Source of the DNA: Pelagomonas calceolata
Lineage: Eukaryota
NCBI GenBank assembly: GCA_918797485.1
Contig: CAKKNE010000005.1
Span: 1,612,001-1,676,000 of the forward strand
Direction: 5' to 3'
Length of the DNA stretch: 64,000 nucleotides
Shown here one piece after another: positions 10,226 to 48,391 of the stretch (within the stretch, counting starts at the first letter, position 1; each line of letters opens with the position of its first letter). Position numbers and translations under genes: made by a program. The notes under the pieces were generated by a model. It worked only from the letters and a program-made list of their open reading frames with translations. It was not told where the DNA came from and searched no databases.

Positions 10226-12841
10226 CTAGAGCCGGTCGAGGAAGCGGTCGAGAGGCGGGATTTCGGGGTTGAGTCCCTTGCGCTTGCGGACCTGCCCGAT
10301 GACAGCGCCGGGCTTGGACGCAAGGTCTGTTGGGTCGCCCTGGAGTACAGCCCAGTGTGAGAATACCATCTGGGGGAATGCCTTGCCACCCGTGGCCGCG
10401 CGAACGTCGGCGTTGAAGCCGAAGGACTCCATTACCGGCATGTGTGCCTTCATTTGGACCATCGGCGTGCCCGGGCGCTGCTCTTCGGAGAACACAACGC
10501 CGCGGCGGCGAGTGAGCACACCGTAGCAACCGCCCATGGCGTCCTGTGGCACGGAGATATCGACAAGGAAGAGAGGCTCCTGGAGAACAGGCTGCGCCAG
10601 CAGCAGCGACGCGAACATTACGCGACGCGCGGTTGGCATGATCTGACCCATGCCGCGATGTATCGCGTCGGCATGAAGCGTTACGTCAAGGAGCTTGAAC
10701 GAAACACCACGCATCTGCTCGTCACAGAGGACAGAAGACTTGGACGCCCACTGGAAGCCGGCAACAACAGACTCGCGGATCTCACCAAGATAGTTTACAC
10801 CCTTAGTCTGGTCGTACAGGAGATTGGCACCGGACCCGTCAGGCCCAAAGCCCCAGATCTTGCGTGCATCGCCAACATCCCAGCCGTATTCGTCGGCCAT
10901 GAGGCGCGCACGGAGTTTGGGGTCGTCCTTGGCCGAGACCTTGCCTGCCTCGATGGCATCAGAAAGCTCGTCGGAGAGGGGTGCCGCCTCCATGTAGAGC
11001 CGATTATGTTTGTTCGGCGACTTGGAAAGGCACGTCTGCGAAGAGTTTGCGGAGCACGACTCGCGGTATGAGACGACAGGATCGGAGACCTTGACGTCCG
11101 TTCCCATGAAATCCTCTTGGAGGTCCTTGAGGCAGATCTCGAGGTGAAGCTCACCAGTTGCCGCTATGATATGTTCGCCCGACTCCTCCGTGTAGCAGAG
11201 GACCATGGGGTCTGACTTGGCGAGGCGCTTGAGGCCCTCGACGAGCTTGGGGAGGTCTTGCGCCTTCTTCGGTTCGACTGCGCAGCGAACAACAGGCGAG
11301 ACGCTGAACTTCATCGTTTTGATGCAGTGCGCTTCATCATGTGTCGATATCGTACCGCTCTTGAGGAGGTACTGGTCGACACCTACGAGGCCGCACGTGT
11401 TGCCGGCAGGTATGTCCTGGACCTGCTCCTGAAAGCGTCCCATCATAATGAGCGTACGTTGGATATTCTTCACCCAGAGATCACTCTTCTTGCCAGGGAT
11501 GTAGTTGGGGCCCATGATGCGAACCTTCTGACCTGTCGCGATCTTCCCCGAAAACACGCGGCCAAAGGCAAAGAACCGACCCCGATCAGAGGACGGGACC
11601 ATCTTGGAGATGTACATCATGAGCGGTGCACCATCGGACGTGTCACAAGTACGGATTGCGTTGGCACATGCGTCGTCGAGCGGCCCATCGTACAGGTTCT
11701 CGACGCGATAGCGCTGCGCCGCTGCTGGCGAGGGTAGCTTGACGACAATCATCTCGAGGATTGCGTCACCGACAGGTAACCATTTCTGCATGACGCATTT
11801 CAAGAGGGGCTTGCCTACCAGCTCGTCCTCCTCTTTTTTGAGAGTCACGCCAACAGCCTTGAGGAGCTTCTGGATCTTCAGCTTCTTGTCCTCCATGATC
11901 GCCGCGAACATCTTGCAGATAGGAGTCATGATGAACTGGCAAAATGCGCGCTCGAGTTGGCCATCACGATCTGACTTGACCCATTTCTTACCCTTGGCAT
12001 CAAAGTAATTGTCGCCCCAGAGCTTCTGCATCATCTTGTCGTATCCTATGCCAAACTTCTCGGAATACATGCGCGCGAACTTGCACAACGTGAACCCCCA
12101 CTGGTGGAGGCCCGAACCAAATGACACAGTACCCTTCTCGGGATACACCTGACAGTCGCCGAGCAACTCATCGTTGTACGTTGCGATGATGACGTTGACC
12201 GACTCCACCGACCGCTGAAAACACTGGTACATATCCTCAGGTGAGAGCTGGAGCTCAAGCAGGGCGCGGTCAACCTTGTTAACGTGGAGCACAGGGCGAA
12301 CACGCTCGCCGATCGCTTGGCGAAGGACGGTCTCAGTCTGGACACAGACACCTTCGATGGTGTCGACGACCACCAAAGCGCCATCAGTAATACGTAGTGC
12401 AGCAGTCACTTCAGATGAAAAGTCGACGTGGCCCGGCGAGTCAATCAGGTTGATGAGGTAGCTGTTCTCAGTGATGGTCGGCCCGTCGTCAGATGACGCA
12501 AGCGCGAACGCCGCGGCGGCAGTCTCGTCACCCCCCGTGACTGCGAGCGCTCGGCCCTCAGCCTTGGCTACCTCGGCCTTCTCGCCATCGGACATCTTGT
12601 ATTCGAAGAACATGGAAATGCCTGTCGACTTGATCGTGATGCCGCGTTCTGCTTCGTCCGCTCGCGTGTCGGTGTAGCGCATCTCGCCGGCGTGCTTCTT
12701 CGCAATGATGCCCGCCTTGGCGACGAGCGAGTCTGTCAGCGTCGACTTCCCGTGGTCGACGTGCGCAATCACACTCATGCTCCGGATGTTGTACTTGAGG
12801 TCCATCAGTGACCGCAGCTGCTCGGTGGTGAAATTCACCAT
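10226..12841 (-). CDS. EEF2: Eukaryotic translation elongation factor 2
   Basis: MVNFT start, [34 protein letters not shown], diphthamide loop LHADAIHRG. Intronless with strongly GC-rich codon usage. Confidence 0.99.
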
Positions 12842-14401
12842 GGTGCCTGCTTCTCACGGCCGCGGCCGAGCCGAGCGAGACGTCGCCGAGTGCCGCCGCT
12901 AGTACGAGTACGTACGGTCGGTTTTTAAACGCCAAGAGCGCTCGGGACTCGAGGACTCTTAACATTATGTCTTCATGGGGGTACTTTCACCGCGCGCAGG
13001 GTTGCGCGTAGGATATAGTGCGTAGGGTCGTGAGCCTGGACTATGGGTAGCTAGGTAGGAATTAGCCGTACGTTGGTTTTGATGTCCAGCAGCGGGCTTG
13101 GCGGTGCTGCCGGCAATGCCCGCAGCGGGGCTTTGGCGTGGGGGCTCCTTATGATGTCGTCGGGTCCCATGCAAAGCGGGCTGCCATATAATTGCGATGC
13201 TGCTTTGATTCTAATTAGCTGCCGACGGCGCCTAAATTCACGCTAAAAACCGTGCATTCGGAAAATGCGCTATCGGCGCGAGGGAGAGCCGCTTGGAGCC
13301 CTGGGCGCCCAGGAAAGGGACTCCTAGGAAAATTTAGATAAATCTCGGAGACACCCAATTTTTACGCCCCCTTCGCTTCGCCTTCCAGGGCTCCTCAGCG
13401 TCAATTATCGTTCGCAGGGATGGATCGTACCCTCGACTGCCCTCGCGTAACGTGGATTTGGTCGTTTCGGTGCTTTTAGTCGACTGCGAGACGGTCCCGC
13501 CCGAGACACATAATACGACACTATCTCCAGCTTCTCGAGCACTTGAACGCAGCCGCAGTGTCCGGGGGTACCCCACGCATGTGCCCGACCCGTTTCCTTG
13601 TTTCGCGCATCCCGTCTAGCGGAATGCCGCGGGTCGCGCCGCGGTGCGGTACGCCGCAAGTAATCTCAGCGACAGAATTGGTGCAGATAGCTGCCCCTGC
13701 GCGTTTCACTGGCTTCAGTACCTTCTCGGGCAGCCTCGGCTCAGCAAAAATTTTTCGCGGGGAGCCTCGCGCGGCCCGCTAAGGGCGCGTCGAAGGGCCG
13801 AACTTCAGGCCAGCTTTTCTCGGCCGCTACAGGCGCACACTTGTCACGGCCAACGCGGCTGGGTAGCCCTGGCTGTGGGCTTTCCAGCGCACCAGCCCGT
13901 GACAAGTGTGCACCCGATGGGGCTGAGCACTGGACGTGTTTTGCCCTCAGTGGCGCCAGCTCTAGCCTCAGTGCCTGGACTCGTACGCAATTTTTTTTAC
14001 GAGTGCTCGGCAAGTGTTGGCGCAGCCCCGTAGCGTTAATGGGACGGGGCACACAGGCCCTGGTGAGTTTTGCGTCACTAGCCTCTAGTGTGTTTTGCTC
14101 CGCTCGCCGAAATGCTGTCCTTCGCCGAGCGCTCGCATAGTAGCGCTCGCCCCTTTACCCCTTTCCGATGACCACCTTTCCAAAACCATCGGGGCCGATG
14201 CTACCGCGAAACTGTCGCCGACACTAGGACCATTTCACCCGCTCTCACCCGTGACTCTCGCCGATGCCGTCCAAACGCGGTTTACAAAAACATAGCTTGG
14301 GGGTACCGAGCCGTAGGCCCGTCTACGCCCGTAGCCGGGGCTGCCGCCCGCACCGGGTGTCGAATAGAAAACCCGCTACTGTGAAAAGCTGGCTGGTTGA
14401 G

Positions 14402-15363
14402 ATGGCGTCCCCGATGACGAAAAAAGTTTTGTTGATGGGTCGCTCCGGCTCTGGTAAAACATCTATGAGATCAATCATTTTCGCTGACTATATGGCCCGT
14501 GATACAATGCGACTATCCCCAACTATTGATGTAGAATACTCTCACGTGCGTTTTCTGGGAAATCTTCATCTCCATCTGTGGGATTGTGGAGGACAGGTTT
14601 GCACATGTGCTGACAGCATTGGACTGAAATTATCCCGTAGGACGATTTTTACCGCAACTACCTTGAACACATGAGGGATCATATATTTCGATCAGTGGAA
14701 CTTTTGATATATGTATTTGACATAGAAAGTGAAGAGCAAGGAAGCGATTTTTCTCAATTCGCTGATGTAATTGAGGCTGTGGAACAGCATTCACCTGATG
14801 CCCGGGTCTATGTCCTGGTACACAAAATGGATCTTGTGAAAGAGGATGTTCGGAAAGCCGTCTTCTCTGAGAAAGAGGCCAGCATCCTCTCCCAAGCAAG
14901 TGATCACTTGCGTATTCAGTGCTTTCGTACATCTATATGGGATGAGACCTTATACAGAGCCTGGTCTCATATCGTGTACTCTCTAGTTCCTAATACAGCC
15001 CTTCTAGAATCACACTTGAACGAATACTGCACAATCTGTGGTGCAGACGAAGTTGTGTTGTTCGAAAGTACCACCTTTCTTGTGATCGCACACGCAACCT
15101 GCATTCCACATAGTGATACACATCGTTTCGAAAAAATTTCCAACATCATCAAACAGTTCAAGCTGAGTTGTCGGAAGGTTCAGGCGCATTTCGAGGGAAT
15201 GTTGGTTCAACATCATCAGTTGATTGCCCTTTTTGAGAATCTAACGAGAAGCACAGCAATCATGTTTATTTCCTCTGATCCTGATTTGATGCACACTGCA
15301 TTGATTTCTTCTAATGTGGCACAGTTTCGGGCGCAACTAAAGATCTGTGGTCTAATTGGATAA
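14402..15363 (+). CDS. RRAGA: Rag A/B (Gtr1) GTPase; intron 14597-14640
   Basis: [65 protein letters not shown] 44-nt GT-AG intron restores the frame. Confidence 0.96.
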
Positions 15364-16029
15364 CATGTCCGCCTCTGGATTATTGAGCTAGAGAGCTCGG
15401 CTCAACGGAATCTCTACCGGAATGTAACTTGATTGGCTTCAGTAGGCGGGGTAAGGAGCCGCGAAGCAGTGGCTGACGGGCGAGCAGCGATGACTAAGAG
15501 CACCTAGGCTATCATGATTCAAGTTGTCTCCAAATTATTTGGTCACGGCTTTAGGTTCGGCAGCGTGCGGAGTAGTGAGGGTCCTTGGTACTTTTAGCTC
15601 CGGCGCGGAGTGCTTGCATTCGGCTGAGTTACAATAAATAGAGACTCTGATGCATTAGCGTGCTGTGAGGCAGGCGTAAAGCGAAGGGACAACAAGTGCT
15701 GTTAGAAAGCCTGGCGATTCCGCAGCTACAGGATATGCCATTGTGACATTCCCACCCGTCATCAAAATTTCACGTAAACCAGCAAGCTTGCGGATGACTG
15801 GCTATTACGTAGTAGGTTCCAAAGGGGATGGCCAATGCAACTCGCAAATACCGAACCGCAACTCAAATTTTTTTTTGGCCTCAAGTGTTTGTCCAAGCAT
15901 GTCCTGCGGTAGTGATCCTGACAGCCTTTAAAGCCCATACGCTGTATCATGATAGCACTGGCAATTGAGAATAGTCCTCAGGCGCGTTCATGGCCGGCGG
16001 CGAGACTTGAGATTCGAGGGGTCCCCTAA

Positions 16030-16290
16030 TTTGAGATTCGAGTTCCGCAGCCCAGCCAAGAACCCTTTGTATGCCCCGAGACCGAGCTGGGGGCTGGTCT
16101 GGTAATTTGGTCTCCCAGGGGTTTCGGGTACCTATGGCCAGGTACCCGATGGGCTGCTAATCGTTTTTGCTCGCCCGGGCCCGTTTCGGTCACTGGCACG
16201 TCCTAGAGGGGTAAGTGCCCCCCCTATTCTCAATTTGCCGCCGTATCAAACTTCTACTTATAGAGATACGGCAAATTTTGGGTTGGGTGT
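16030..16290 (+). repeat. Dispersed repeat; internally deleted inverted copy of 35125-35570
   Basis: Blocks such as ctaatttgagattcgagttcc, ttggtctcccaggg, ggtacccgatgggctgc and tagagatacggcaaattt match the reverse complement of 35125-35570. Confidence 0.85.
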
Positions 16291-16395
16291 CTGCCCCGGG
16301 CCCCGTCCCGGGCCTCTTTGTATGTTGAGGATGGGTGTCCGCCCCCAGTGTCTGGTAATTCTTTCGAATACTACAAGAGCGAAATGGGCCCATCC

Positions 16396-16538
16396 TCTGT
16401 CGCGTTTAGACCACGCCTTCCGAGCCGCTGAAGCGTCTAGGTACCTTTGCGACGTAAACTTCCGAGTCGGGTTTACTACCCGAATGTCTCAGTACTAGTA
16501 TTTCTCCGAGTCGGAGCGGAGGAGTCGTTGTCTATACT
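16396..16538 (+). repeat. ~130-bp dispersed repeat, second copy at 30071-30186; internal inverted ends AGACCACG...CGTGGTCT
   Basis: Direct alignment by eye: tctgtcgcgtt(t)agaccacgcct.ccgagccgctga ... ggagcggaggagtcgt.gtct.tact. Confidence 0.85.
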
Positions 16539-16843
16539 AGACAGACCCATCCTCCATGGGTCCTAATTAAGATGAATTTTCCTGCTAATCTTAATATCAC
16601 GTATTGCGGAACATCCCTCAAATTGATAGCACATTCAAGTTTTGGCTGGTCGTTGGCGACGTACTGCGCATACTCTGGTTGCCGTCCTTAGCAAAACGCT
16701 GAGCGGGAACTGCCCCCCCCCCACCCCCACCCCCCGCCCACTAATTGATTAATCGAGATTTTAATGGCGTAATGTAATTGTTGTGTCGGGGATATCAACT
16801 TGGCCAATGCAAGTAGAAAGTACAAGCAACTTGAACGAGCTCC

Positions 16844-19800
16844 TTAGCATGTGAACAAATAGTCGAGGTACATGCTATTTGATGTCTTGTTCAAACCTCC
16901 ATTGAGTGATATCTCAACAAGAAGCCGGTGTTTGCATTCCTTGTGAGAATGGGGAGGATTCACCTCACAAGCGACATGAAACAGGTGCAAAATAGGCATG
17001 ACAAACTCAACTACGCCCCTCGTACAAACGGCATCAATAATGTGGGTCTTTGCATGTCTCATCGGAGCTACAGAACTTCTCAAAACGACCTTTACAAGAC
17101 CAGTTTCGAAAAACCCCCGACCAAAAATACTTATATCCACCCCTGCTGCGGCAGCTGGCACATTAGAGGCATCATACTGGGTTGCCTTAATTTCTGTGAC
17201 CTCCGGCGTTCCATAGTATGTGAAACATGTGCTGCAGTGTGCGCCAAAAGTCTGACCGTCCAGTGCTACCTCTACAAGCATATCTAATCGTTCTATTGGA
17301 AGATTGAAATGTGAAGATGCATCACCGTTGGTCGATTTCAAAGCCTCAACTAAAGTATCCGATTTTGAGGAAACCACTATACTGCCGGAATCAATAACTG
17401 GGGTTTCAAATGAAAACTCACCAGCTTTGCTGCATTTTAATGAAACAATTGTTGGCTCAATATGCGCTGACTTGTTGTCTTTGGGGCGAAGTCTAACAAC
17501 GGCTGATGTAAAGGACGTTAATACTGGAGCCGGGGATAAGTAAGGAAAATGCAACGAGAGACGGGTGCCGCCAGTCAAGGGTCCGCACATTGACGAAATC
17601 TCCTTGGTGTCACCTTGACCGATTTGCTTGTACAACACAAGCGACAAACTTTTATTAAGGAAATAAACACCATCCAGTGTAAGTCTCAACATGAATGTCC
17701 AAGTAGTCTGTTCTGCTTGGGCAATGTCATGGTCAGTCACAATATCTGAGCAGTCGTGACCCCGAATGCACTGCGAAATTTCAGCTAATGATGGTGGAGT
17801 AAAGGCAAGGGTGTTCTTATTCACATACCGAGGGCGGCAAAAATATCCTCGTTGACTGTTGCCCTGGAGAGTTAGATTAACCGACATTTTGTTGGAATCA
17901 AAGAATGATTGTCCCAAAATGCTAACTGCATCGGGGGTTGTGGATGGATGTAATGGCCGGCAATCTGGGGCGAGACTCAGTATTGTCGCGTTGTGTAAAA
18001 TAAATGTCGTCTTTAGCAAGGTAACAAAATCACTTCCATTTAAGGCCACGGCCACCCGGGCTTGGATTGGAAAATTGCCCTCACAAATGCAAGGACTTTT
18101 GCAACGTATTGCAGTGTCAAGTGGATCATTCTTGTCGCACAGTGCTGTCAATTTCGCCGGAACAATCCATTCACGATGCTGACCTCCCAGTTCTTTGAAT
18201 CGCACCTTGATTTCGTTTGTTTCAAGAAGGGACTTGCCAATGATAATAACGTCATGAGCATCAGTGGAACTACAACAGACCGGCTTAATTGCGGCAAGAG
18301 TTGGATTATCGTAGAGACGAATGCAGACGCGGCTTGTGGTGAAGTCTTTGCCATTCATGGCAACCTCAGCAAAAACAAACCGCGTTGTAGTAAATCGGGG
18401 CATTCTACAAAGAATGCCCGTTTTGCCGGCACCGATACGTGCGCCCTTTGGGGTCACATATTTACCAATTGAGGACCTTGGGCGGGTCTCCAATGCCAAG
18501 GTCCCCTCATCTAGGGGAGTGAACCTCACAACACAGCCAGATGATTTCCAAAATCCACCACCCCACAACAAAACCTTAGTTCCTCCAATGGTTGGTACGG
18601 AAGCTGGTTCTGCATAATTTACTGAGGATGGGACAAAGGCAAAACCACCAGTTTCAGTCAAAGTGGCACTTGAAACATATCGTTCACGCAAACCAGGGAC
18701 TGAGCGAGGACAGTGGACGTGCTCTGTGTTGAGGCCTTTTTCTAGAAAGTGACCCAGTCGTCTTGCTTCTCCCGAACCCCAGGTAAACAGCATGCCATCT
18801 TCTGCTCTAACTGCTGCAGAGGAGTTCGCTGCAGCATTAGCAAATGCCACTGAACCAGGGAAATGTACAACACGGCGAGGTGAGATTGTGTATGTGGATA
18901 TGACCGATTTCGAGTTCTGACCCGATACACACAGACCCAATCCAAGTTGGCCAAATCGATTGAATCCCCACCTAAATTTCCCCATGTCTACACGAAATGC
19001 CATATAAGCTATATCACACGGCAGTAGACGAGAATAGCTTGCAGTTGGAATCAAACGCAAGTACATGAGCCCAACCACAGGTCACAAATTCGCACTTAGA
19101 CGCATCGTCAGGCCAGCACACACGCGCTGGTGTGGGTTGCTTGGCGATGCGAAGTCCCACGCCAAGCTCACCACAGCGTCCTTCTCCCCACGCCCAGGGT
19201 ACGCCTCTTCTTGTTAAGATAATCGTGAAATTTGGTCCACACGCTGTGAACTTCGCTGGTTCGTGTTGCTGCGATGGAATTACAACAAGTTTTGGTAACA
19301 GTTGAATTTCAGCGCGTTGAGCCTACACGTGATCTGTGGTTACAGACAATCCAACAGGCAAATTTGGTCACGTGAGGATCAGATTTGTTGCAATGATTGT
19401 CATCTGTGAATCGGTGCCCGGTTTGCCCCTCACAACCTCGGCCCCAGGTGTAGACATCCCCAGTCAACGTCACAGCGACCGAGTGACGAGATCCGCAGCT
19501 AAGCGAGATGACCCGGTGCTGACTGAGAAAACTCACCTCAACCCAACTTTTACTCGCGTCCTCCACTCGCTTTGTCGCACCAAGCCCGAGTTGTCCACTT
19601 CCCCCTATGGATGTATGCAAACCTATATATAGCTGGATGACGCACCAGATCCCTGCGTCCATATGGATCCCTTGTCGTCGACTGCAAGCGAATGAGTCTC
19701 TCCAAACGAGACACACTTAATATGAGCTAAAACATCATTATGAGCAGTGCTTCCCTCCCCGTCTAGGCTGATTACGCGTCCCTATAATTCAACTGATTAT

Positions 19801-19972
19801 GCCCCCACCCCCCGCCTAAGCGCACCTCACTGAGCACACATGCTTGGCGGTAGTTCCCATGCAGCGCATCGACTTTTATATCTTTAAAATCGTGTAGGAC
19901 TTGTATTGTGTGTTTCTTGCACCCCCAAGCAAAGAGTTCGCCTGCCTTTGAATCTGAACTCAGCTTATCCAT
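16844..19972 (-). CDS. RCC1-repeat + IPT/TIG (Ig-like) domain protein, multi-exon at the 5' end (exact junctions not resolved)
   Basis: RCC1 motifs (GQLGLG, SCGSRHSVAVTLTGDVYTWGRGCEGQTG, LFTWGSGEARRLG) followed by IPT-like repeats (P.S.P..GGT.V...G.GF; VEVA.NG.DF). Confidence 0.75.
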
Positions 19973-20837
19973 GCGCTGCGATTCAATGCAAGATACAAAC
20001 TTATCTAAACTTGTATCTCGAACTTGTATCTCGATGCCGACTACTCCAAATCGGCCGAATAGGCATCCCTTGGAACAACACGCCCCCCCCCGTTTCTTAG
20101 GCCACACAAGGCTCATACTGCGTCTACCAGCAGGCTTGGCCGGCGGGGGTCCTGAGTTCTAGTGATAGTCACGGTACCCCGGCCGAGGTCACGGTAGCCT
20201 GAGGGGTTCGCGAACTTGAAAGTCACTGGCACGCTAGTTTGCTGCTATGTACCACGCAATGCATGCGGCCAAGAACAAGCTGCCTGAAGGTCGAGGCCGC
20301 CCGGGAAGGTACTCAAGCCAGTCGAACGCGCGGGGACAGCTATCTCTACCGATTCCGAGTCCGTCAATCATTTGAACATGTGCAGCGTACAAGCTCGTGA
20401 CGCCCCGAGCGCTCGTATTATGTGTCGCAGTCGATTAAAAGTACCCGAGCAGTCGATTATGTGTCGCACTGGCAGTCGAGAAGGGCCTCGAGGCGCAGGC
20501 CGCGCTCAGGCTGGTACGATCAGTACTGCGAAGGGGTACCCGTGGACATGAACCATTTTTTAGACTGTATCTCGAGCTAGCCTTATCGTTCGCTCCGGGT
20601 CCGGGGAAGCGCCCCAGACCAGACTCGGAAAAGCCGTTCGCCTTGCTTACTTTGACGCGCGACCTAGATCGCGACCCCATAGCCGGCTCTAGGCGGTGTA
20701 CGGTGGGCTGCCGCCCGAGAGACGAGGCAGCACGAGAGCACCAGCGCCAAAACCCGAGATCCCGCACCAGATGAAAATTGCCAGTCATTTGGAATTTTTT
20801 AACTTTTCAAGTTCAACCAATTAGTAAAGGGGCGGCT

Positions 20838-21710
20838 GGCACCCAAATTGGTAAAATTTTCAATTGATAGCCCGAAAGTCCTAAGCACACAGCGACACTA
20901 GCCTGCCACGGAGGTGCCCCCTCGCTTTTTCAGGGGCCATAGTAGTCACGGTATATGAATTAGAGCCCATTTTGCATCAAAACGGACGCTCACGGGAAAA
21001 CCCGTTCGCTAACCGTTTGGATGCCAAATGAGCTCTAATTCAATTATATTACGACCGAAATCCATGGTTCTGGGTGGCCGATTTTGGGGGTCTAATGATT
21101 TCTAGTATATTTCATGACTAGGGGGGTATTTCGAATATATAGTCGAGTTAGACCGGGCCCGCCACGTCATCAAAACGGTTCACTGCGTTCACCGTTTAGA
21201 CGCGTGGCGAGTCTAACCACGTAATCATATTAGATTACGCTTATATTATAATTTTCACGACAGATTCAATAGTATATTTAAACCTTCGATAATTTTACAC
21301 GCACAAGATCTTATAATCATTCCGCCAAGATTCCGATTAAACTTCAATAAGATCTTGGAGTTCATCAAGGGGACAGATTTGATGATGATGACACTTTGGC
21401 CATAAAATTCATCACATCCTACATCCGAGTCAACTTCAAGAAACTGTTGATATTGTATTCAGAAATCCCGATTTCTTAATTATACTTCAACATTCTCTTG
21501 TGATTCCGTTGGCTGACAGATTTGATGATGATGACACTTTGCAGTGGTGGTAAAATTGGTATCAACTTGCACAAATCCTTAATATCCACAATTCGCCACG
21601 CGTGGGGGCCCTTCCGCCCCCTTGCTTTTTGCCCCACACTCCGCCAGTATGTGAGGTACCCCCTAAGGCCCATTCGCAGTAAGCTGCGACGCTCGGGCCA
21701 GCCTAGTTGA
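20838..21710 (+). mobile_element. Repeat homologous to 30196-30650, interrupted by an AT-rich insert (about 20930-21595)
   Basis: The left block ccaaattggt..attttcaattgatagcccgaa..ctaagc.cacagcgacactagc and the right block cgcgtgggggcccttccg.ccc..cgcagtaagct are shared with 30196-30650. Confidence 0.7.
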
Positions 21711-21821
21711 GTGCTGTCCCCCCTTAGTAGTACTACTACTACTACAAGTAGTAAAAATGTTTGCACCGGAAGCAACTAGTAGTGTCTCTGCGTAATTTGC
21801 AAGTGCAGTATATATTACAAG

Positions 21822-24800
21822 CTAGAATTGCAAGCTGCCTCCTTGTTTCAGGGGGATGTCCGACTCCCCGTCAATATCTAAAGTTTTCTCGAGGCTAAGG
21901 AGAAGGGCAGTAGTGGCTCGGGTTAGACCAACAGTGGGACGGAGGACTACGACAGGCACCACCGTTACAAGTTGATGGGGCGACGATCGAGATAAGGCAG
22001 CAACACATGCTTGATGTGCATCTTCTAACCCGTTGACAATTGCATTGCGCGCATCTTCAAAGTGATGAGCACGTACATCATTTGTGGTCCCACGAGCATT
22101 CCAGGCAAGAGAGGAGCTACTATCGTGGCCATCAAGTCTGTTGGCTATATCATTGAGGGCAGTAGTAAGATGTGAGACAAGAGATCGGCCCACGCGAACA
22201 GACTCGCACACAAGAACTCGGCTACATTTGGCTAACTCGTGCCTGAACACAGGCCACTGGTGAGGCCGAGTTTTGATCACGAGCGTGTGGTGAATTGCGC
22301 GAGATATTGACCTGCCGATGACATGGATTGGACGAATGATGGAAGCGCCTTGGATAAATCTGTAAAATTGTTCACTAGACAGCTCATGCGACCAAACACG
22401 CCAAAGACGGTGCAATGCAGATGCCAGTGCATTTGAGACTATACGGCAGGGCCTTGTTGTGACCTCGACTCGCTCGAGAGTGAACATCTGGAACATATCA
22501 TCTAGGGAGTCAGAGCACAGCCGCGTCACACTTATCTGCCTAGGGCTGTAGTCGAGCTTCAGGGAGAGTGGTGCTACGTCAAGAACAAGATGACACTCAT
22601 GTTTTGCTGGCCGTGGCTCCAGGCACGGAAACCTGACCAATGGGGACCCATCTTTACTCTGAAACTTCACCTCACTAAAAACACTAGTGAGGAAATTGAT
22701 AACTTCGGCATCTAGACAACACCGAAGCGGCAGTAGTTTCACCTTGATTGCTGTAGTTGGCCCATCAATTAATGCACGAAAGTGCAAGAGTGCTTCACCA
22801 GTCTCACGTGGATGTGCATCGTGTGATTGCCAATGTCCTAGCATACGCTTTAGCGCCTGTTCTCGAGGTGATGACAGTGATTCGGAGACAGAAAAATCGC
22901 CCACACGCACATCGCATCCTGTCTGAAGGCTAGTGGAAGTAGAAGTACAAAATTTACTACACAACAAGACGACCTCTAGTAATTTATTGACGTTTCTCTG
23001 GTCCTGGATATGTATCGAATTGCATTTTAGGTTTCGCGGTCGCCCTCTCTGCACTTTACCCCAGTCACAACCAGCAAAGAGGCCGAGGTGAATTTCCCTT
23101 ACTTGTACACAAACGCATAGAATCTCCGAACACAGCATCCCAATCCTCAATTTACTCTTCAAATTGGGCTCTGACACATGATCTTGAAGCATCTCGGGAT
23201 ACACGCCATCATACCAGACTGCCGTGCTATTCGGTAGAGGTGGACTCTGTTCCCCCATGACTTTTGCTGTTACGTACTGTGATTTGTTGTCATCTTGCGA
23301 CGACGCGTTCTCGCCTACTGTCACAGTTCCTTCCAATCTGCCACCAACTGCAGTCCATTCTACAACTTCTTCCTTGACAGCAAAGAATAGGTGAATGAGC
23401 GTCTGTAGAGAATCAGAGCAACAATATATACGAGCCGTGTCACCATTCAGGTACAAATGGATGTTTCTAGCTTTCAAGCTATCAGCGGCCACTACGACGT
23501 CAATCACGTCTATAGTTGCAGCCTGTACATAATTACAGCGCTCTGCCTCATTCTCAATTTCTACTCCAGCATGTTTATTCTTCAACAAAATCATTGTGTC
23601 CCTCATTAAACCAGAAGCAAAAGAGGTTAACTTGCCAACAACGGACATTGAGCAAAATTGCAGGACAGCGACAGTCAACACAGCACGAAGGTCATGAAAT
23701 GAGACTGCACGAGGTATGTATTCTAAGGTGGTGTCAAGGAAAACAATGAACCATTTTGTGACTACAGAACTGGAAGGGGTGCCAAACCTGAGGCGGGTTG
23801 CATCAAAAAGCACACTGATGCGACGGTGTGGTACCAATAAGCGGCATGCCGCCCCGTGTATGGACAATGATACTGTCCCTTCCGGGGCGTATTCACCAAC
23901 AATGAGCCCCTGGTGTACCATGTTTTGGTCAGTCTGAGTTGGGCTCTTTGAGCGCCGCTTGCATACCACCACTTGATTGTCGTAAACTATGCGTGCATCC
24001 ACTACCTTAAAATATGCGGCTTGGTTGTCTGTTGTGATTGCGATCCCTCGCATTGTCACCAGGAGGGTGTTGGGAGGCCCTTGTTGCCAGTCTATGGCAT
24101 CCCACCGTTCTTCTTCAGTGTCTTCTAGGAGACACATTGCAAGAGAGCCCAAAATCAAGTCAAAGCTGACAATGGCGGAGTCACAGTCATCCAAGTTACC
24201 CACAAATTTGCGGGTAGTGGACGCTGTGACAGCAATAGTATCACAAGAGACAAGGCAGCAAAAGCTGGGGATATAAATAACATAGTGTGTCTTCATGATT
24301 GATTCGTGTTCCGGGCTTTTGCTATGCCCTTGGCGTGATAGACAGCTGCCATGTTCACGATTATTTTTGTTTCTATAAGCAGCCAACGCTGGGCGTGATA
24401 AAGGAGGACATGACTCAATCGATTGGACTTCAATGCGGCATAAATGGGTGTTAGTTGCGTCAATACTGGCAATACAATTCTGATTAATCCACAGGGAGCC
24501 TTCCTTGAGCTCAGCAGCCCAGAGGGACGAGGCATGCGAGGAGGAATGCGAGACTATCGACAAATTCGTCTTCCTGAGGGAGGCAGTTAGGTGCCACATG
24601 CCATCTACAGTGCGCAATATCCAGGCAACTCGCATTGAAGCTATGCTGACGACAGCTCGACATGAAACCGGAGTGGCGTTGATCATGTCATGAGCATCAC
24701 CAGGCCACAGTGTGTCAAGCAAATTTAAGCACCTAGCTCTCCAGCGAGCAAAGATTGTCGCATCAGAGCTCAAGAATGCGCATCTCAACATGCTTGCTGT

Positions 24801-26126
24801 CCACTCTTTGACATCTACAGCTAGTTCAATACACAGACTTAAGCTGATGAGCATCCCGTGCGCAGCTCGAGCTCTCAAGTTGACACTGGCGGCTTTTCCA
24901 ACAAATGACAAAGAGGTGCCGACGAAACGCAGTTTAAAAAGACCCAGGGTCGCTGTTTCGGCGTTATCGTTTATTATGACTTTGACGTTGCCCAAAATTG
25001 TCACGCGTACAGTAGTCTGCCTAAGCTTCGGGATCTTCAGCTGAGGCGGCTGGCATTTGCAGAAAGAACCATCGCATTCAAAAACACTACTTGCATTCTT
25101 GGTGCTTGTACCAGTCAACGAGCGATACATTGTGCTTTGAATCACTTTTCGAGTGTCCTTCCCAGAGCAAGTAACATCGGAATGACGTGTATTGATTACT
25201 CCTCTACTTTGATAAGCATGTTGGTTTTGACCTTGGGAGGTATGGAGCAGAGTCCCAAATGACATGTCGGCAACCAGTGGTGCACGAAAGCTTGGCGACG
25301 TGATATGGATGTCAATGTCAAAAGACTCTGCCAATTCACGAATCATAGCGTGCCCACTTTCGAGTTCAGAGAGGCCAACATCATTGCCGACTGATACTGA
25401 GAGCCGACCCCAGCTCAGCGCAGATCTTCTGCTTTCAGTGCACGTGTGGAGCTTAAGCTCTGCCAGTTTGAAGCGCAATATAGGTATTTTGGAATTTTCT
25501 ATTGCCACCGTTATGCCTGATACATCCACCAAGGTTCGCTGCGCCCCCTGCATAACCCATCGCACCAGGGCATTCTGCAAGTTAGCAGCCACACAGCATA
25601 CGTCCCTGCTGGCTACGCCTTTGGATTTGGAGGCATCCATCTTGCGAGCCCCCCCAGGTCCAATCCTGCACGGACTCAGAATCAGTTGAAAGCTACCAAT
25701 GAAACACCGGTCCGACGTAGATGCTTCCACATGAACACCTTTGAGTCTGAGTACACAGCCATCTCGATGCATCGATATTAAGCTTGTGGCAACAAGTTCC
25801 TGCAATGATACTACGTGCAACAATCTCCGCAGCTAAATCACTAGACTCTGCATGCCGCACAACGTGCAACACCACGCAATTTGTGATCGTCCAGCCAGGC
25901 CTAGGACAGGTACAACGCTACTCGTAAATCTGACTTTGTACATTGCATCTCACTGTAATAAGAGCGCGCCCACCGCCTTTTCATCCAGTGCTACATTATT
26001 GCATGTTACAATTCCGTCATGGACGTCAATCTCCTGAAGTTTTTTCTTTAGCACGCGGCCAAGGAGACGATTTAAGATGAGCTGAAAGAGAAAAGATGTT
26101 ACTCTAGATTTTACTTGTGAGAGCAT
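21822..26126 (-). CDS. ATG2: Autophagy lipid-transfer protein ATG2-like (5' exons approximate)
   Basis: Chorein_N-like start (LILNRLLGRVLK..IDVHDGIVTCNNVALD), KVKLLPLRCCLDAEVINFL, LKLDYSPRQIS and the C-terminal VPVVVLRPTVGLTRATTALLLSL resemble ATG2 conserved blocks. Confidence 0.75.
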
Positions 26127-27133
26127 TTTCTTCCCCACATAGTATGATACCGTAGGTATCGAAGTACCGTACCGTAGGTACCTACCTACGGTACGGTACG
26201 GCAGGTACTGTACCGTAGGTAGGTACCAGCTTGTACCAACTACGGGGGTAGTACTACAGTATGGATCACGGTATGTACCTACGGGTAGCTATGCAGGAAC
26301 CCATAATTCCAAGGCCTGGATCTCAGACATCCACATCATGATGAGGCCGCACTGCGGCAGGCACTTTCTACTAACTATGGACTGCCACTGGGCCCAGGCC
26401 CGGGCCAGTGAGGGGTAGCTTCAACTTGAAGTTGTAGTAAATTCAAGTTCAAGTTGCGCGCTCCTACCGTGACCGTGACTCGTGACGAGGCCACTTACAC
26501 AACCATGGGCCATCATGATGATGACGCACTGGCACATAGTACTAGTAGACGAGCGTACTAGATGCCGGCGCGGCTACCAGCGGGCGTCAGAGTGCATCAT
26601 CGACGTTTGATAGCCCGACGGCGGTGTAGGTTGGCGACATTTGTCGTTTACACAAAGAGGCACCATGTGCCTGAGAAATTTTCTCAACGCTGGCTTCCAG
26701 CACCATAGGGTCTATTATGGCACCAAACACAACCCAGGTTATTCCTGGGCTGCCCTTTGGGCTGGGACACCTCCGTGAGTGTACCAAATTCTAACGCGAG
26801 GCTAGAAGCCAGCTAGCAGTTACCCTGGTTACTGTACTAGCCTTAGGCTCCCCTCGGATTCTCCGGCCAACCACAAAGCCAAATTGGCTGTGGTTTGTGT
26901 CGGTCCTCAGATTTATTTAGCCCGCCCTCCCGGGCCCTCCCTGTTTGATGGGGCCCGGGGAGATCTACTACCTGTCCCCGGGGTTGGTTGGCCCGATGGG
27001 CGGCAACTGAGCAAAGAGTAAATTCCCAACTATTAGTCTGCTGCTACTCCACTAGCCACTAAGGAAACTAGGGTAAGCTGAATACCCTATATATTGTACA
27101 AGCTGGTAGATAAGGGGACGTACACTTGCCATC

Positions 27134-28268
27134 ATGACGCCTAACGAATTTGGACAAGTCCGTTACGGGGTAGAAATGTACTCTATGAAGGAAGAAGATT
27201 TTTTCAAGATGCAATGTTTGAATAACAAAACAATGTTTGGTGTATTTGATGGTCATGGGGGCAAGTTTGTCGCACGCAAATGCGCAGAATATGACTGGGG
27301 CAACGAGCAGTCGTTCGAGGAAATATTCTGGAAGCTTGACGAGACCCTGGGACCCCAATCTCTGAATTCAGGAACCACTGCGTCGATTATGATGATTGAG
27401 TGCGTCCTCTTTTCTCTACCAGTGTATTAAAAGGCACTCAAGTAGGCATCGCAAGAGTAACGACTTCAGAATCAGTTTGGCATGGGTAGGTGACTCACAA
27501 ATACTGGAGATTGATATGATTGCTCCTGTGGCGGGTGTTACTTACTTGACGTCAGCGCACAATTGCATGAACAAGGCAGAGATCACTAGAATTCACAATC
27601 AGTGGCGCGCGCGCAAATTTCTCGAGGAAATGCGCCTTCAGACTCACGTCCAAAATGATTTATTTCAATTTGGAGAACTCACGCAACAAACTTTTGCTTA
27701 CGAGAAGAAGTTGGAGTCCGCCTATGAGCGCATCTTTTCAAGCCATCTGCGTTGCGAGTCCCCATTGTTACAAAGACAACTAAGCTTGCTGGAGAAGAGA
27801 AAATCACATAAGAACGAGGATGGGGCCCTTGCATTGCATGCCCGCTGGTTGCAAATGCCACAAAGCTCTATTGTGCATGGCGCTTCTACCTGTGTTACGC
27901 GTTCTATAGGTGACTGGGATGCGTCACGCACGCTGATTCCTCACCCGGAGATAATTGAGCGTGTTGTCAAGAGGGGTAACCACAAACGCTTTGTAATTGC
28001 AAGTGATGGACTTTGGGGAACACTTTCGCTCAATAAAATTGCCAAGCTTGCCTATAGAAATCGCGATGATCCGCAAAAATGTGCTACATCAATACTGAGG
28101 CATGTGAGGCTGGAGTGTGCCCAACTAAATGGCGTCCGAGAACATCCGTTTAAAGATGATACGACCATAGTGATCGTTGATGTAATCGCAGCCCCGGCAC
28201 CACTTAACCCTCAGCGGGCAGAATGCAAGTCCAGCGTCAAATGGCCATGGCTCTGCAAACTCCGATGA
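27134..28268 (+). CDS. PPM/PP2C protein phosphatase; intron 27400-27445
   Basis: EDFF, FGVFDGHGG, SGTTA, AWVGDS, VTRSIGD, IASDGLW, DDTTIVIVD. Confidence 0.92.
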
Positions 28269-29104
28269 GGTAATAACGACGAGGCTTAATTGGGATTCTA
28301 GCCTAAGATAGTAGTGCTCGAATTCAATTCGGATCTTAACACGAACACACCTGAGGCGTTCAGTGGAAATTAGATATAGTACTGTTCGCCAAGATTGGCA
28401 AGAACATGTGGGAAGGGGCCGGCACCCACTGGCACGGACCACGGTAGAGAATGGTCGCCTGGGCCTTGGCTCTGTTATAATTGACGTGCTCCGCGAGTAC
28501 CACATGCTCTGGTTTGAGCTACGACGCTGGCCCCAGGGCCATTCATCATGATTTTAGGTAGTCCGAGTCGCCTTGTTAGGACGTAATGAGCTGGTAGTAC
28601 TAGTAAGTCCCAGTGTATCATGACCTTGACCGTGACTTGGCTCACACTGGCAAGTTAACTGACTCAAAATGTACTACTGTATTTCAAGTTCTTTATGATA
28701 AAAACTTGAATGGGCCCGGACGTAGAATATGCTCGACTCGGAACGCCCGACTTTGAATGCCATGTATTCGAGTCTGGAAATCGTAACGATAAGTAAAAAT
28801 AAACTTTTACACTCCTGCAAGTTATGATCATTGGACTTAAGTCGCCTGGCCCGGGATGTGCCCATCGCTCTGCCCTCGCCCATCGGGATTGGCTAAGCTC
28901 TTCCCACCGAGGCGCACGGCGCTCGCCGCCGGTTGCTACGCTCCCCTACTCGGTATTCGGTTTACACCGAAACTTGCGTTGTCGTTGCGACTTAGCTCCG
29001 ACCCGACAAAGTATAGGAAATTCGTTCCACGCCGGAGCGGGCTGGGGGATTTTTTTTTGCGTTTTGTCTACCACCTCTCAAAATATTGGGTATTAAAGTG
29101 CTCA

Positions 29105-29278
29105 CCAGGGGTCCGTTTTGATGCCCAAGGCCGTCCGGAGGGCGGCGTAGGAAGGGGGGACGTGTACTCTGTGGGCCCCACCCCGACCCTTCCCCTCGTC
29201 CGAGCCCCTTCGTTTTCGAGGGCCGACGCGGCGTCGCCGCGGCGGCGCCCGCGGGTTGGCCCTGGAAGGCCCCAGGGC
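29105..29278 (+). repeat. ~175-bp GC-rich dispersed repeat, second copy at 55157-55330
   Basis: ccaggggtccgttt.gatgcccaaggccgtccgga...gcgcccgcgggttggccctggaaggccccagggc is present at both loci. Confidence 0.9.
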
Positions 29279-30195
29279 TCTTACAAACAGACGGACACTA
29301 ATAATGTAGCTAGTGTATCTCTGAGGTCCGGCTTTTGGCGTCGGGGGAATTGGCGTGCACGATAACTCAGTCTGAGTTGCATGAACCTGCCCACTGGCCC
29401 GGTTTGGAGCTTCGTGCAGCCGCACGAGCCTGCATCTCGTCCAGTGGGCAGGATTATTGCCCAGGGGCAGCGCAACGAAAATCAGGCCGTTTCTCGTCTT
29501 CGAAGCACGAAATCTCGGCGCGAGGTGCCTAAACGTGCCCAGTGGACGAGCTGCTGCCCGACGACGTCAGGTACGAGCTGCGGTCGAAAAAAAGGGTGTC
29601 GGCGACCGAATATTGAACGAATGGTGCGCCTCATTCGTTTCGAGCGAGATCGAATGGGTCGCACCATTCGACGAATCTTGGGGCTGCGAACCAGCTGACT
29701 GCGGATTATCGTTCTACCCCAGCTGCTCGGCGATATTGCGGAGGAGAGGGCCACACAGCGTCCGGTATCGGGCGGGGGAGGGGGCATCGAAGGGCTGCTG
29801 CAGCAAAAGGGGGCATTTTCTCGCGACGCCGATGTCGGCGCGCAACGCACCCAGCGCAACTCCGGGAGATCGCGCGCGCGCGCGTCATTGTGTAAGTGGA
29901 CTTTTTTGTGTACGCGACGATCCGGCTGAGATAGCGGGCTGCCAATTGCGTCGCTTTGTTTAGCTAAATTTAGCAAGCGTTTCGTCCGTCGGCTAGGAAT
30001 CGTGGCATGTCACTGTCCTTGCCGGTAGCAGCGTCACGCTGACTCGGAGCCTTATATACTGGCCTCCTCATCTGTCGCGTTAGACCACGCCTCCCGAGCC
30101 GCTGACGCGTACGCGTCCTTTGCGACGGAAATTTGGGTTCAAGTTTACCCTAGTTTCTCGGAGCGGAGGAGTCGTGGTCTGTACTCACGGGGCCT

Positions 30196-30650
30196 GACGC
30201 CAAATTGGTGAGATTTTCAATTGATAGCCCGAACGGGGCGCCTTTCGCCCGCTGGGGTCCCAGGGGCATCCTAAGCCCACAGCGACACTAGCTTGCCCCG
30301 AAGGTGTCTCCCTGGAGATGTTGTGAGCCCCCCAAAATGGCCTAACGTGCGGGTATTTGGCTTAACTCGCGGGTTTTCAGGGGGTGAAAGTCAAAACTCG
30401 CTTCTATGCTGGTGCTTTCCCCCTCGAAGTCCCCCTTGGTACCCGCGGCGTCTGCAGGATGCGCAAACACGGCAACCTTTGGTGTATAGTTGCCCAAATT
30501 GTCGCCTGACGCGGCACGAAACGCCACTGGCGCAACGTTCGCGTGGGGGCCCTTCCGACCCCTCGCATTTTTAGGGCCTCACACTCGGCCAGAATGTGGA
30601 GCACCCCCTGGGCCCCATGCGCAGTAAGCTTTCCCCTTCGGGCTATTAAA
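30196..30650 (+). mobile_element. MITE-like element with an internal inverted pair tagcccgaa / ttcgggcta
   Basis: Homology to 20838-21710. Inverted motif near both ends. True termini and TSD not resolved. Confidence 0.55.
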
Positions 30651-30804
30651 GGGGAGGCGTTACAGCCCCCAATTCAATCGGGGTCCGGCCCCTTACTAGA
30701 CTCGGGAAGTTAGGCAGCAGGCCGCTTTTCACTTCCCCAGGTGCTGCCCCTGGCTCCGCTTAGAATCGCCAGCGGAGGAGACGGAGACAAGGAGGTGGAG
30801 AAGG

Positions 30805-33800
30805 TTAGGCAAGGACGTAGACGCCGTCGTGTGTGACAACCTTATTGTAAATGAGCCCGCGGTCAAGAATCCAGATAAGTAATGCAACTCGACAGAGAGA
30901 AGGGTTCTCAAGGCAGTGTGTGCGCGTGGGGAGCTTGGCACGAACTGCACTCCAAGATGGTTTGACCCACGATGTGTTTATGGCGTCCTCCAAGAAGAGA
31001 ACAAGTTGAGTGAGTTCAAGTGCGCTAACCTGCCCATATCTCGCATAATTTTCAGCGCATATCTGAATGCATCTAATATCCTCAGGTGTAGCAGACCCGA
31101 TTGGTAATGCTGCACATAGCGTTAGCAAAGCAATGGGGATTATCTGGTACAAAGGTGTTACTATAGTCGGGTTTAACAATAGGGAAGGGGGCAGACGAGC
31201 TTGGATTCGAAACGGTTTCGTGATGAATGTAGATGCTACTAAGTCAAGGTAATCTGAGACGAGTTTGGGTGAATATTTGAAGAACCGATAGATATTGCTA
31301 CGGTATAGATTGCTTTGCGTTGAGTTCGCAATGACAGAATGCCCAAGTGATTGCTCGTAGCTCATCCAATCATCAAAAGTTGAATTCCAACATTTTCTCC
31401 TTACGTAGTAACATAACTCGGCTTCACCAGCATTTGCTTTTGTCACAGTTCCAGTCCAAATCAACTCGTTCACACGAACAAAAATGTCGTCATTGATATC
31501 AAAATAAGCTTGCGGTAATGCTTCTGAAGACGGCGTCAGCAACTCAGATGACGAAATTGATTTTTCAAGCCAAGCCCAATCGTCGGAATACATGCACGGC
31601 AAGGCAAGATCGGGCTCCAAAAGCATGCATGCTTCAGGGAAAGCGAAAATCATTCTGGTCAAGAGCATATCCATTTCCCCATCACATTCCTCGATGAGAT
31701 ACTGCATAACCTGAGCAATTGACGGCACTGTGGAAAAGCACAGCCATTCACCATCCTGCTTGGACTCGGGGAACCTGCCACCAGTTTCATTGTTGTCTGG
31801 TAGCTTGACCGCCAACATATTTCTTTGATGTGCAAAATACCAATAAATACGTCCCTGAAAATCTAGTCCCAGCGATGGTGTACGTCCAACGGCTGTACAT
31901 TTAAGCTCCCTATCACGGGCTGCTATAGCTTGCCGCCTTCGGTGTTTTAGTTTCCCTGACCGTTGCTTGGCCAAGCAACTCGAGCAAAATTCGTGTGCCA
32001 TGGCCCAGTTTGGGAGTTTTCCTGTGCTTCTGGGAGCCATGTAGAAGTCATTTCGAGAATATACAAATGCACTTTGAAGATAGGCAAGATCGCCCCCGCA
32101 CCACGTGCAGGATGACTCTAGTTGCACATGACTTACAACAGAGCCCGGTAGCGACGGAAAATGATCTATCACCAGCAGATCTTGCAAAATTCTCGTATGC
32201 ACATGCTTATAAAGTTGCTTGCGAGTGCGGTCAGGTTCGACAAGTGATGCCAAATTATCGATTACTTCTGCCGCCAGGATCAATTCTCGCTGCTTACGCA
32301 TACTGCCTGAGGGATATTCTAGGGATGACCGTTCCGCCGCTAAGCTGGTAGCGTGGCATTCATTCTCTGTATTTTGACCTTCACATGTCAAAAAATAACG
32401 CGTGGTGCGCACATTCATATCACAGTCTGCTTGGCAGTCTACACCACATGCATTCACTTTAGTCGCCGAAGCTGCATAGATAAGCAGAGAACTGAGTATA
32501 GCAACCCAATCTTGTAAATTCCAGGTACAGTCAAAAGAAAGAGCCCGTATCGAACCAAACAACTGCTTGGTATCTTTGCTATGCATAGCTTTATTATTTG
32601 CTTCTAAAACACGATCCTTGTGGTCTAGAGACAACCATCGGGTCAATTGCAGAGATCGCACTGAATCTGACGAATCGTTCTCTGTCATCACAACTTCATC
32701 ATAGGTCATTGCCAAGTACCTTTTGTCTTTTCTCTTTAATATCAACTGGGGTATCATTAAAAGCGAATTGCAACCAGGGATGAGGACATGCTCGATGATG
32801 CAAGGGACATTGTAAATCATTGAGACATTTGAGATCATCCTATCAATGGTCCTAACTGCGCCCCCCATGACTAAGCTATCGCAAATAGGACAAAACCAAT
32901 ATGCATCCTTTTCGCTGTCTTTTCTTAAAGGGCGCTTAGAGCAGACTGTATGATAGTAAGCAGAGCATCGATCACAGCGTACAAGTTGCGACGAGGAACT
33001 CGCCTCATCCTTACCACAAACAGCGCAGAATCCCGAGTAGCTGGTGATCAAACTTGAATTGAAATTCTTCTCACGCACCAAACGTTCAAAAGTCGCACTT
33101 AATTTTACCGCAACTCGCGTGATGTGGTATCCCTCGGGCGTGCAGAGATCAGAGGTTTCGAGATTGTGTCTCATATAAGAAACAAAATTTGCGAGCGAGT
33201 TGCCACATTTCCCTGAGAAGGGGGGGTTCTTCGTGCTGGTTAGAGATGTAAATTTTGCTTTGAATTTTGATACCGCAGGCTGTGAGAACAATATTCCCAT
33301 GACATTCCTGCACCACTTGGTGATAGCTGAGGAGTTGCTTCTAAACTGAGGTACATGTGCAGTGTCGCCACGCATGTCGGGCGAAACAGAAGGTTCGTGC
33401 TTTGGTGTCCAAGCCGGGGAGATGTTGAAAATGGACACATTCCCCTGTACTCGCGGATTCAAGTTGCACCGATGCTGTTTGGAGCTTAGGGTCCTAGGGA
33501 TGGGAATTCGAAAACAGCTCTCCCTTTTCAACGTGGAATTTGTGCTCCGACGTAGACAGGAGATTATCCTCGCACCTGTGAGCGCTTGAGCAAGTACATC
33601 AGCTGATTCAGAATTTGGCTCGGCCATCCAACCCCCGGTACTACTAGAAGTTTCTGATCGGATCTCCGAGTCTGTGAATCCAAGCTCACGAAAAGCTTGG
33701 AGTGACAAAGTTAGCTGTGCGAGTGGTTGCCATGTTATCAAATTGACCTCGAGTAAAGACAGCATCAAAGGTTGCAGGCTGCTCGGATGACTTAATCCCC

Positions 33801-34644: not shown

Positions 34645-35124
34645 CTGATCTCGCTTCCGACCTGACCTGCATGATCTCTCGCTCGATCTTACAGGGTACG
34701 CCGGGTCTCAACCCTTGCAACTCCAGAGCTCGCGGGTTCCCCGGGCAATCATATTCGCCCCACGGACTTCTTCTTTAATGGACTCTGGCCGGGCAACGCC
34801 GAGTCTTCAAGTTTGCTCTACCGTGCATACATCCTCGTGTTGGCCGCCAGTGCATCGCCCTAACTAAACGAAAAGCGTGTCGTGCGTCGTTGCTGTGGGC
34901 GAAAACGCCGAGGAGGCGCTGTTTGGAGCAACTTGACGAGCACATAGGCTGTAGAGTTAAGACAAAGCTAAAGATAAATCACTCTGGAGATTGAGCCCCG
35001 AGCCTCCAGAGCTCGCGGGTTTCCACGTCGACAGTCTAACCCGGGCAACTACAGGCAAAGTTGAAGATCATTCTGATCAGCCGGAGTCGCCAGTGGGCCC
35101 GGGTACCCAGTGGGCTGCGCCACG

Positions 35125-35570
35125 GGGGCGGACACCCAACCCCAAATTTGCCGTATCTCTATAACTAGACGTCTCGGCCGCCGCCAAATCAAGCCGGGGG
35201 GGGGGGGCTGGGGACCCTCTAGGGTGACCAAAACGGGTAAGCAAAACGATTAGGTTTGGAAATTTTAGTGGCCTGCAGCCCATCGGGTACCCGGCCGCGC
35301 CTATGCATCCGCCCCACGCCATAGGTACCCGAGGGCCCCTGGGAGACCAAACTATCAGCATAGAAGCGAGTTTTGATTTTTCAGTCCGCAGGTCCCTGAA
35401 ATACCCGCACGTTAGGCCCCAGATGGGCAACTTCGCGACCGCGTCTCGCCTCTAAATGACCCCTTTCCCCCAGCCCGGTCACGGGGCGTACAAAGGGACT
35501 CTGTGGGACCCCATAGCCAAAATCGGCGCCGGCCAAGTGGCTAGGAACTCGAATCTCAAATTAGGAGACC
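35125..35570 (-). repeat. Dispersed repeat, longer copy of 16030-16290
   Basis: Reverse-complement block matches to 16030-16290. Confidence 0.8.
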
Positions 35571-48337: not shown

Positions 48338-48391
48338 CCAGGGTCTGTGAAAAAGAGCCTTGTCGAATTTGACAGGAAGAATGCGGACTGA

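Follow-up and report, generated by a model that had tools for sequence, protein, structure and literature searches.

Non-coding DNA in a 64,000-nucleotide stretch assigned to Pelagomonas calceolata (positions 1,612,001 to 1,676,000 of contig CAKKNE010000005.1, hereafter the window) records a real, recent and highly stereotyped footprint process. Its products, which we call scars, all follow one rule: a dinucleotide XY becomes XY-C-revcomp(XY)-G-XY, a six-base insertion in which revcomp is the reverse complement. We traced the scars through the window, through one MITE (miniature inverted-repeat transposable element) family with two copies in it (A and B) and through related metagenome DNA. A 20-base pattern common to copies A and B matched 105 stretches in metagenome contigs, which gave 104 loci (L numbers). 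The DNA covered comes to about 0.67 Mb, or about 2% of a 32-Mb genome, and was selected by MITE neighbourhood. The metagenome runs (X4, X5, X12 and X14) were read as contigs, which give no allele frequencies.

In a blind scan, cores of the form C-NN-G flanked by 2-bp direct repeats were enriched, nearly all of them outside open reading frames (ORFs). In the 29.4 kb of non-ORF DNA there are 159 exact motifs, against 10.7 expected from an order-3 Markov model and 10.0 +/- 3.4 in local shuffles, which rules out chance for the motif class; ORFs hold 18, with 8.3 expected. NN is the reverse complement of XY in 159 of the 320 non-ORF words of the form XY-C-NN-G-XY, a match that chance would produce in 1/16. 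Enrichment is strong only for the C/G loop pair with a two-base arm: other loop bases or arm lengths show far less of it, and the weaker C/C, G/G and G/C loop classes in part overlap exact scars. Words with one mismatch (347 seen, 203 expected) or two (1860 seen, 1689 expected) are also in excess, so the process has a long history. Exact scars take up 996 of 29,501 non-ORF bases and, by arithmetic, about a tenth when decayed scars are added. Scar density shows no trend with distance to ORF ends, and a suspected bias toward re-hitting old scar centres was not found (13 against a background of 12). A second lineage, 84-92% identical and with its own MITE subfamily (L008, L020, L076 and L078), has scars of this form as well (72; the next loop pair reaches 18), and so have high-GC loci (59 against 23).

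Every one of the 16 dinucleotides serves as XY, symmetrically between the strands; CG, GC and TA are the rarest. The flanks have nearly no consensus. Because C-XY-G is the context in only 77 of 683 sites, the C and G of the scar are not derived from the target. The same count led us to reject a hAT footprint geometry, which would need C-XY-G targets, and it largely refutes replication template switching or slippage that makes palindromes from local sequence. The products are indeed short inverted copies, and slippage may lengthen the tandem scar arrays, of which the window has eight doubles, but template switching also leaves the fixed two-base arm and the fixed C/G without a reason, and we consider this class of explanation highly improbable. 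Our first reading, a fixed CNNG core brought by element ends, was dropped since the core follows the target. A Tc1/mariner-type footprint, made of the duplication plus two bases per element end, meets the same difficulty. A TA-bounded 4-bp core is the classic Tc1 footprint, and MITE-like elements with TA duplications are present in the window, but here the core tracks the target instead of a fixed end and TA is hit at a rate of only 3.1 per 1000, which refutes it. Nor do the scars look like an assembly artefact, since they recur across 104 loci, many assemblies and Logan contigs and avoid coding DNA. We give these last two explanations together very little credence.

The polarity of the change is seen in the MITE family. 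Its consensus is 115 bp, starts with CTGTCG and ends with CGACAG, has imperfect terminal inverted repeats (TIRs) and contains no scar. The family set, drawn from the window and the 104 metagenome loci, holds 114 pattern-matched copies that fall into 49-50 flank groups; the copies are not independent, because several of the contigs represent haplotypes of the same locus and an exact 20-base match was the criterion for all. The scar at 16461 is present in six copies at one locus, with an empty site in 84 copies at 38 loci; for 16505 the counts are six copies at one locus and 79 copies at 33 loci, and for 30138 they are 17 copies at two loci and 66 copies at 34 loci, the remaining copies being truncated or deleted at those sites. 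A third locus (L022/L030) has the 30138 scar with a second scar nested within it, and in haplotypes L037/L039/L062 this scar shows C>T decay. Thus the two TCCGAGTC of copy A are found at one of 49 family loci and the TTCAAGTT of copy B at two to three. Because most family loci have empty sites and the consensus is free of scars, the scars of A and B are derived insertions. Empty alleles at scar sites in paralogs and haplotypes likewise have a single XY.

A preliminary description of this DNA had read A and B as copies of one repeat with reciprocal scars. The letters at its five coordinates read as it gave them, both loci are copies of the one MITE, and neither finding that it had named as refuting it, non-homologous loci or scars common to most family members, was obtained. 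Its list of scars was right as far as it went and overlooked a third scar in A, at 16493-16500. It also held that each copy gained its own scars after duplication. The scars are derived and were gained separately in each lineage, but A and B, rather than forming a simple duplicate pair, belong to a set of about 49 MITE loci, and the scar in B predates the copying of B's block. Copy B lies inside a block (29995-30692) that is also found at the L010/L061 locus, and is a secondary copy of that block; the 30138 scar is common to the L010/L053/L061 paralogous locus and is older than the block duplication that made B.

Scars also segregate between wild haplotypes, which makes the process recent; that it is frequent is likewise borne out. 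Scars, exact or with one mismatch, account for 13 of the 17 rows of non-coding 6-bp haplotype indels (12 of 16 unique ones), and they are seen in separate runs too. Against an X14 contig, the hotspot at 26182-26632 differs by 51 gap letters and one substitution.

Four estimates place the average non-coding rate at 0.04-0.09 scars per substitution, about one scar per 12-25 substitutions. The haplotype indel count gives 12 unique scars against 290 substitutions in non-coding DNA. A block-wise count over 15 pairs covers 45 kb of non-coding DNA and finds 22 scars to 272 substitutions (0.08, confidence interval 0.05-0.12), with 103 complex non-coding blocks excluded for scars and substitutions alike, two scars probably doubled via L032, and some pairs perhaps paralogous or converted. 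The MITE copies have 16 exact scars against 182 differences from a single consensus, where shared changes inflate both counts, and a steady-state estimate from the standing density is 0.04. The block-wise count over 63 kb of coding DNA, under a crude mask (ORFs of at least 200 amino acids), gives no scars against 271 substitutions: scars are purged from coding DNA. In eIF2-alpha and COPA, none of the four motifs tested is an insertion when set against homologs (15 other ORF-starting motifs lay outside this test), and the coding deletion of 6 bp that X4 has at 22608 is no scar. The general claim of the preliminary description, a rate approaching that of point substitution, is therefore not borne out on average. 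Parity is reached only in hotspots, as at 26182-26632 with its seven scars to three substitutions; the A/B pair itself, with four scars and, once these are taken out, 10 substitutions in 109 aligned bases, was a favourable pick.

From these directly observed features (the rule, its enrichment, the polarity of the insertions, their independence of the flanks, their polymorphism and their purge from coding DNA) we infer a mechanism and a type of donor. We think it rather likely that each scar marks the excision of a cut-and-paste DNA transposon that makes a 2-bp target duplication. The donor is probably a low-copy, highly mobile element of the CACTA/Mirage/Chapaev/Transib (CMCT) clade. It would have terminal C...G and insert with little sequence preference, duplicating XY. 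At excision, the transposase would nick one base within each element end and seal the flanks as hairpins with the element's terminal C as the loop, and a host nuclease would cut each hairpin open two bases beyond the loop. Along the flank hairpins the left end would then read XY-C-revcomp(XY), with the mirror sequence at the right end; the two 3' tails, ending in revcomp(XY) and XY, would anneal through an automatic 2-bp microhomology, with fill-in to follow. The product would be uniform because the tails always end in complementary dinucleotides. For palindromic XY the hairpin model predicts a 3-bp by-product, XY-C-XY or XY-G-XY, which by our reading fits five of 10 three-base haplotype indels; the words TACTA and TAGTA occur 41 and 40 times against about 27 expected.

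The scar has two features expected of a hairpin footprint: the insert is an inverted copy of the flanking bases, and a direct 2-bp duplication surrounds it where the ancestral site has a single copy. The MITE that carries scars is only a target and not their source, because its own duplication is 9 bp. A 2-bp duplication with all 16 dinucleotides is within the CMCT range, and of the CMCT CA..TG termini the scars point to the C/G only. In the accessible parts of the sources, most CMCT elements end in CA..TG and duplicate 2-5 bp of target (PMC12730594), some CACTA elements duplicate 2 bp (PMC6004678), and flank hairpins are documented for hAT, Transib, RAG and Muta1 (PMC5499845) and, together with palindromic inserts and microhomology joining, for Ac/Ds (PMC5873905).

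Among known systems, Tc1/mariner elements likewise leave a dinucleotide duplication around a short core. Theirs is TA only and the core is copied from the element ends, whereas here any dinucleotide is used and the core is templated by the target. The target duplication of Ac/Ds is 8 bp, against 2 bp here. As far as the text of PMC5873905 was available, Ac/Ds (hAT; plants, budding yeast and Candida albicans) also forms palindromic P-nucleotides from flank hairpins, joined by microhomology. The CMCT clade would share with the donor of the scars the terminal C...G, the short duplications and, for Transib and RAG, the flank hairpins; the available passages on it do not describe a hairpin loop that keeps the terminal C, and no element or transposase was seen in our DNA. 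In rice, too, excision of DNA transposons is standing variation near genes, but the available text reports about 4,000 transposon polymorphisms genome-wide between two species, with irregular deletions and filler (PMC4423477), whereas here there are about five exact, uniform scars per kb of non-coding DNA. The literature that we searched holds no report of the motif or of pelagophyte footprint fields; most subscription papers and supplements were outside its coverage.

Several observations weigh against excision by a CMCT element. No donor element or transposase was found in the 0.67 Mb (window plus 104 loci). Candidates starting with C were not in excess in a scan for TIRs with 2-bp duplications (C 130, G 135, T 103, A 83), a CA..TG scan found no multi-copy family, and transposase families (Pfam) matched none of 113 locus ORFs, the longer ones of 226 non-redundant ORFs below 62% GC out of 666, and none of 20 window ORFs. 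A CMCT donor would be expected to encode a DDE transposase bearing C(2)C and H(3-4)H motifs. The sole filled allele among scar sites, a 2,483-bp segment with C...G ends between two AC (L043:10245-12727; a perfect scar in L011), has no TIR and no ORF above 104 amino acids, and its junction is equally a plain deletion. Ac/Ds yields heterogeneous products whose palindrome centre is the complement of the flanking base, as far as PMC5873905 is accessible, where here there is one dominant product with a constant, flank-independent C/G. No description of a hairpin loop built from a terminal C was found in the literature searched, and the low-GC regions of P. calceolata are described, in the accessible part of the genome paper, as without transposon accumulation (10.1101/2021.10.25.465678). 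Scars occur in clusters (variance of 1.1 for a mean of 0.56 per 100 bp) and re-hits on the same dinucleotide are three times background (36 and 38 against 12), as a donor-free enzyme could also produce. As the sample was picked by MITE neighbourhood from so small a part of the genome, a low-copy donor would be missed.

A rival is a donor-free process of cut and repair. A host or domesticated nuclease would break the DNA with a 2-base stagger at a site that never held an element, and the six bases would be added by fill-in, one untemplated C, fold-back or hairpin sealing of each end, and rejoining by 2-bp microhomology. A 2-base stagger is the geometry of Spo11/TopoVI-like enzymes. Such a process would fit the lack of any donor or transposase, a scar density that is very high and has lasted long (exact words exceed expectation by about 149, one-mismatch words by about 144 and two-mismatch words by about 170), the same scar in the second lineage and the bursts in hotspots. 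It requires strictly C-specific addition at both ends, where an element end gives the C/G for free, and the absence of a donor on which it leans concerns only about 2% of the genome, chosen by MITE neighbourhood. For these reasons we hold it to be unlikely, though a serious competitor. That Pelagomonas-type algae run a process of this kind, with a 2-base staggered cut at nearly every kind of dinucleotide, C caps, hairpins and rejoining at the cost of six added bases, is accordingly put forward as a tentative idea.

Excision by an element outside the CMCT clade, or with another geometry (for example an undescribed group with 2-bp duplications or a TIR-less element like the L043 segment), appears less probable still. 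A scar discloses no more of its source than the terminal C/G and the 2-bp duplication, one filled/scar pair lacks TIRs but has C...G ends, and TIR-less CA..TG elements exist, such as Kyakuja, with a 7-bp duplication (PMC12730594, in the available text). The ends of the L043 segment, however, extend into older repeats, as seen in L052/L068 and L060, and no second filled/scar pair is among the matches listed. We rejected the segment as donor in view of these ends, its lack of a TIR and of a long ORF, and its deletion-like junction. A 140-bp remnant of it is present in L021. Returning to CMCT excision, the other places where a donor might have appeared held none: large presence/absence differences between haplotypes are mostly deletions or elements with 8-9-bp duplications, and the insertions within MITE copies and the repeat ends examined showed none. 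A 69-bp hairpin at 179-247 was rejected as a MITE, being part of a larger repeat.

The predictable six-base insertion is the commonest indel longer than 2 bp in the non-coding DNA of what is likely a very abundant ocean alga, and scars abound where transposons are described as not accumulating. Each scar keeps a full record of cleavage chemistry (the 2-bp stagger, the loop base and the hairpin opening point) and so predicts the mechanism of the responsible enzyme. If the donor is a CMCT element, the scars are population-scale evidence on excision of CACTA-like elements with 2-bp duplications, and tallies of resident elements can miss intense transposition. If there is no donor, the mechanism is new, an undescribed active source of mutation that wrote up to about a tenth of the putative-centromere non-coding DNA and exceeds point mutation in hotspots. 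Being recognisable and polarised, scars may serve to map break-accessible chromatin and to date haplotypes; recurrent hits call for caution, since repeat hits on one site mean that scars are not homoplasy-free markers.

The window encodes eukaryotic proteins (COPA, EF2, eIF2-alpha, CCT, dynamin and Dcc1 in a Pfam scan), its GC content is about 50%, and the closest named relative of its eIF2-alpha is that of Chrysophaeum taylorii (78%). In the accessible text of the P. calceolata genome paper, each chromosome has one low-GC (52%), gene-rich region that includes the Dcc1, MCM and Rpb2 genes (10.1101/2021.10.25.465678), and a second paper, in its available part, also finds these regions and reports that they are poorly conserved (10.1101/2024.10.30.620910). 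Rpb2 and MCM genes are present in the fetched metagenome loci, and window DNA is common in marine metagenomes. The host is a pelagophyte, and the window is likely a putative low-GC centromere of P. calceolata.

Table 1. Positions of scars, MITE copies and associated features in the window.
Feature	Position	Strand	Evidence or remark
Window-wide scar field	1..64000	.	178 exact motifs, of which 159 (5.4 per kb) lie entirely outside long ORFs
Left 9-bp target duplication, copy A	16388..16396	+	8/9 identical to the right one
Copy A, MITE lengthened by scars	16397..16544	+	family comparison
Exact scar TC-C-GA-G-TC in A	16461..16468	.	at 1/49 loci
Exact scar TA-C-TA-G-TA in A	16493..16500	.	inside an insertion only partly explained
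Exact scar TC-C-GA-G-TC in A	16505..16512	.	single TC in B and consensus
Right 9-bp target duplication, copy A	16545..16553	+	
Polymorphic scar GA-C-TC-G-GA	20622..20629	.	absent in L037, X12, X14
Scar hotspot	26182..26632	.	window vs L037: 7 full scars, 2 three-base half scars, 3 substitutions
Recent scar, in window	28562..28569	.	absent in 4/4 metagenome runs and L037/L062 (among 12 of 23 indel rows listed)
Left 9-bp target duplication, copy B	30063..30071	+	right partner visible only at L010/L061 locus
Copy B, same MITE, right TIR interrupted	30072..30186	+	family comparison
Exact scar TT-C-AA-G-TT in B	30138..30145	.	common to paralogous locus
Element of ~506 bp nested in right TIR of B	30187..30692	+	8-bp target duplication

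The MITE is short, non-coding and bounded by TIRs, as Mutator-like MITEs are. Its 9-bp target duplication, also a feature of that group, is perfect at 13, 8/9 at seven and poorer at 13 of the 33 loci with both ends, and therefore points to a Mutator-like origin. It has no match in Rfam or in viral contigs, a Pfam scan of ORFs found no autonomous Mutator-like element (MULE) partner in the loci examined, and folding was uninformative. The 8-bp duplication of the element nested in B is intact in L061, and its far end is lost in the window. Decayed relatives of this element lie at 20843-21698, 15992-16320 and 35122-35593. Further MITE-like elements with 8-bp duplications are found at L060:4923-5308, L043:12532-12896, L044:640-762 and L002:9317-9873.

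The window and L013 match up to 16603 and then have different neighbours; the break, within an old repeat family (55702-56139, 60960-61394), is likely a rearrangement polymorphism. A MITE-like segment at 26226-27106 has 11-bp TIRs between two TA. Positions 26622-27081 are absent in L037, L062 and X14, with 83 other bases in place, and 20942-21598 (657 bp) are absent in L037, L062, X4 and X5, with 13-19 bases instead. In L011 an inverted duplication of about 8 kb, near perfect and in a single contig, is either real or an assembly artefact. Arrays of TACCGTAGGTACC-like words at 5944-5990, 26144-26227 and 58175-58222, and in L011 and L043, are highly variable among haplotypes and are possibly a second, TA-anchored footprint system.

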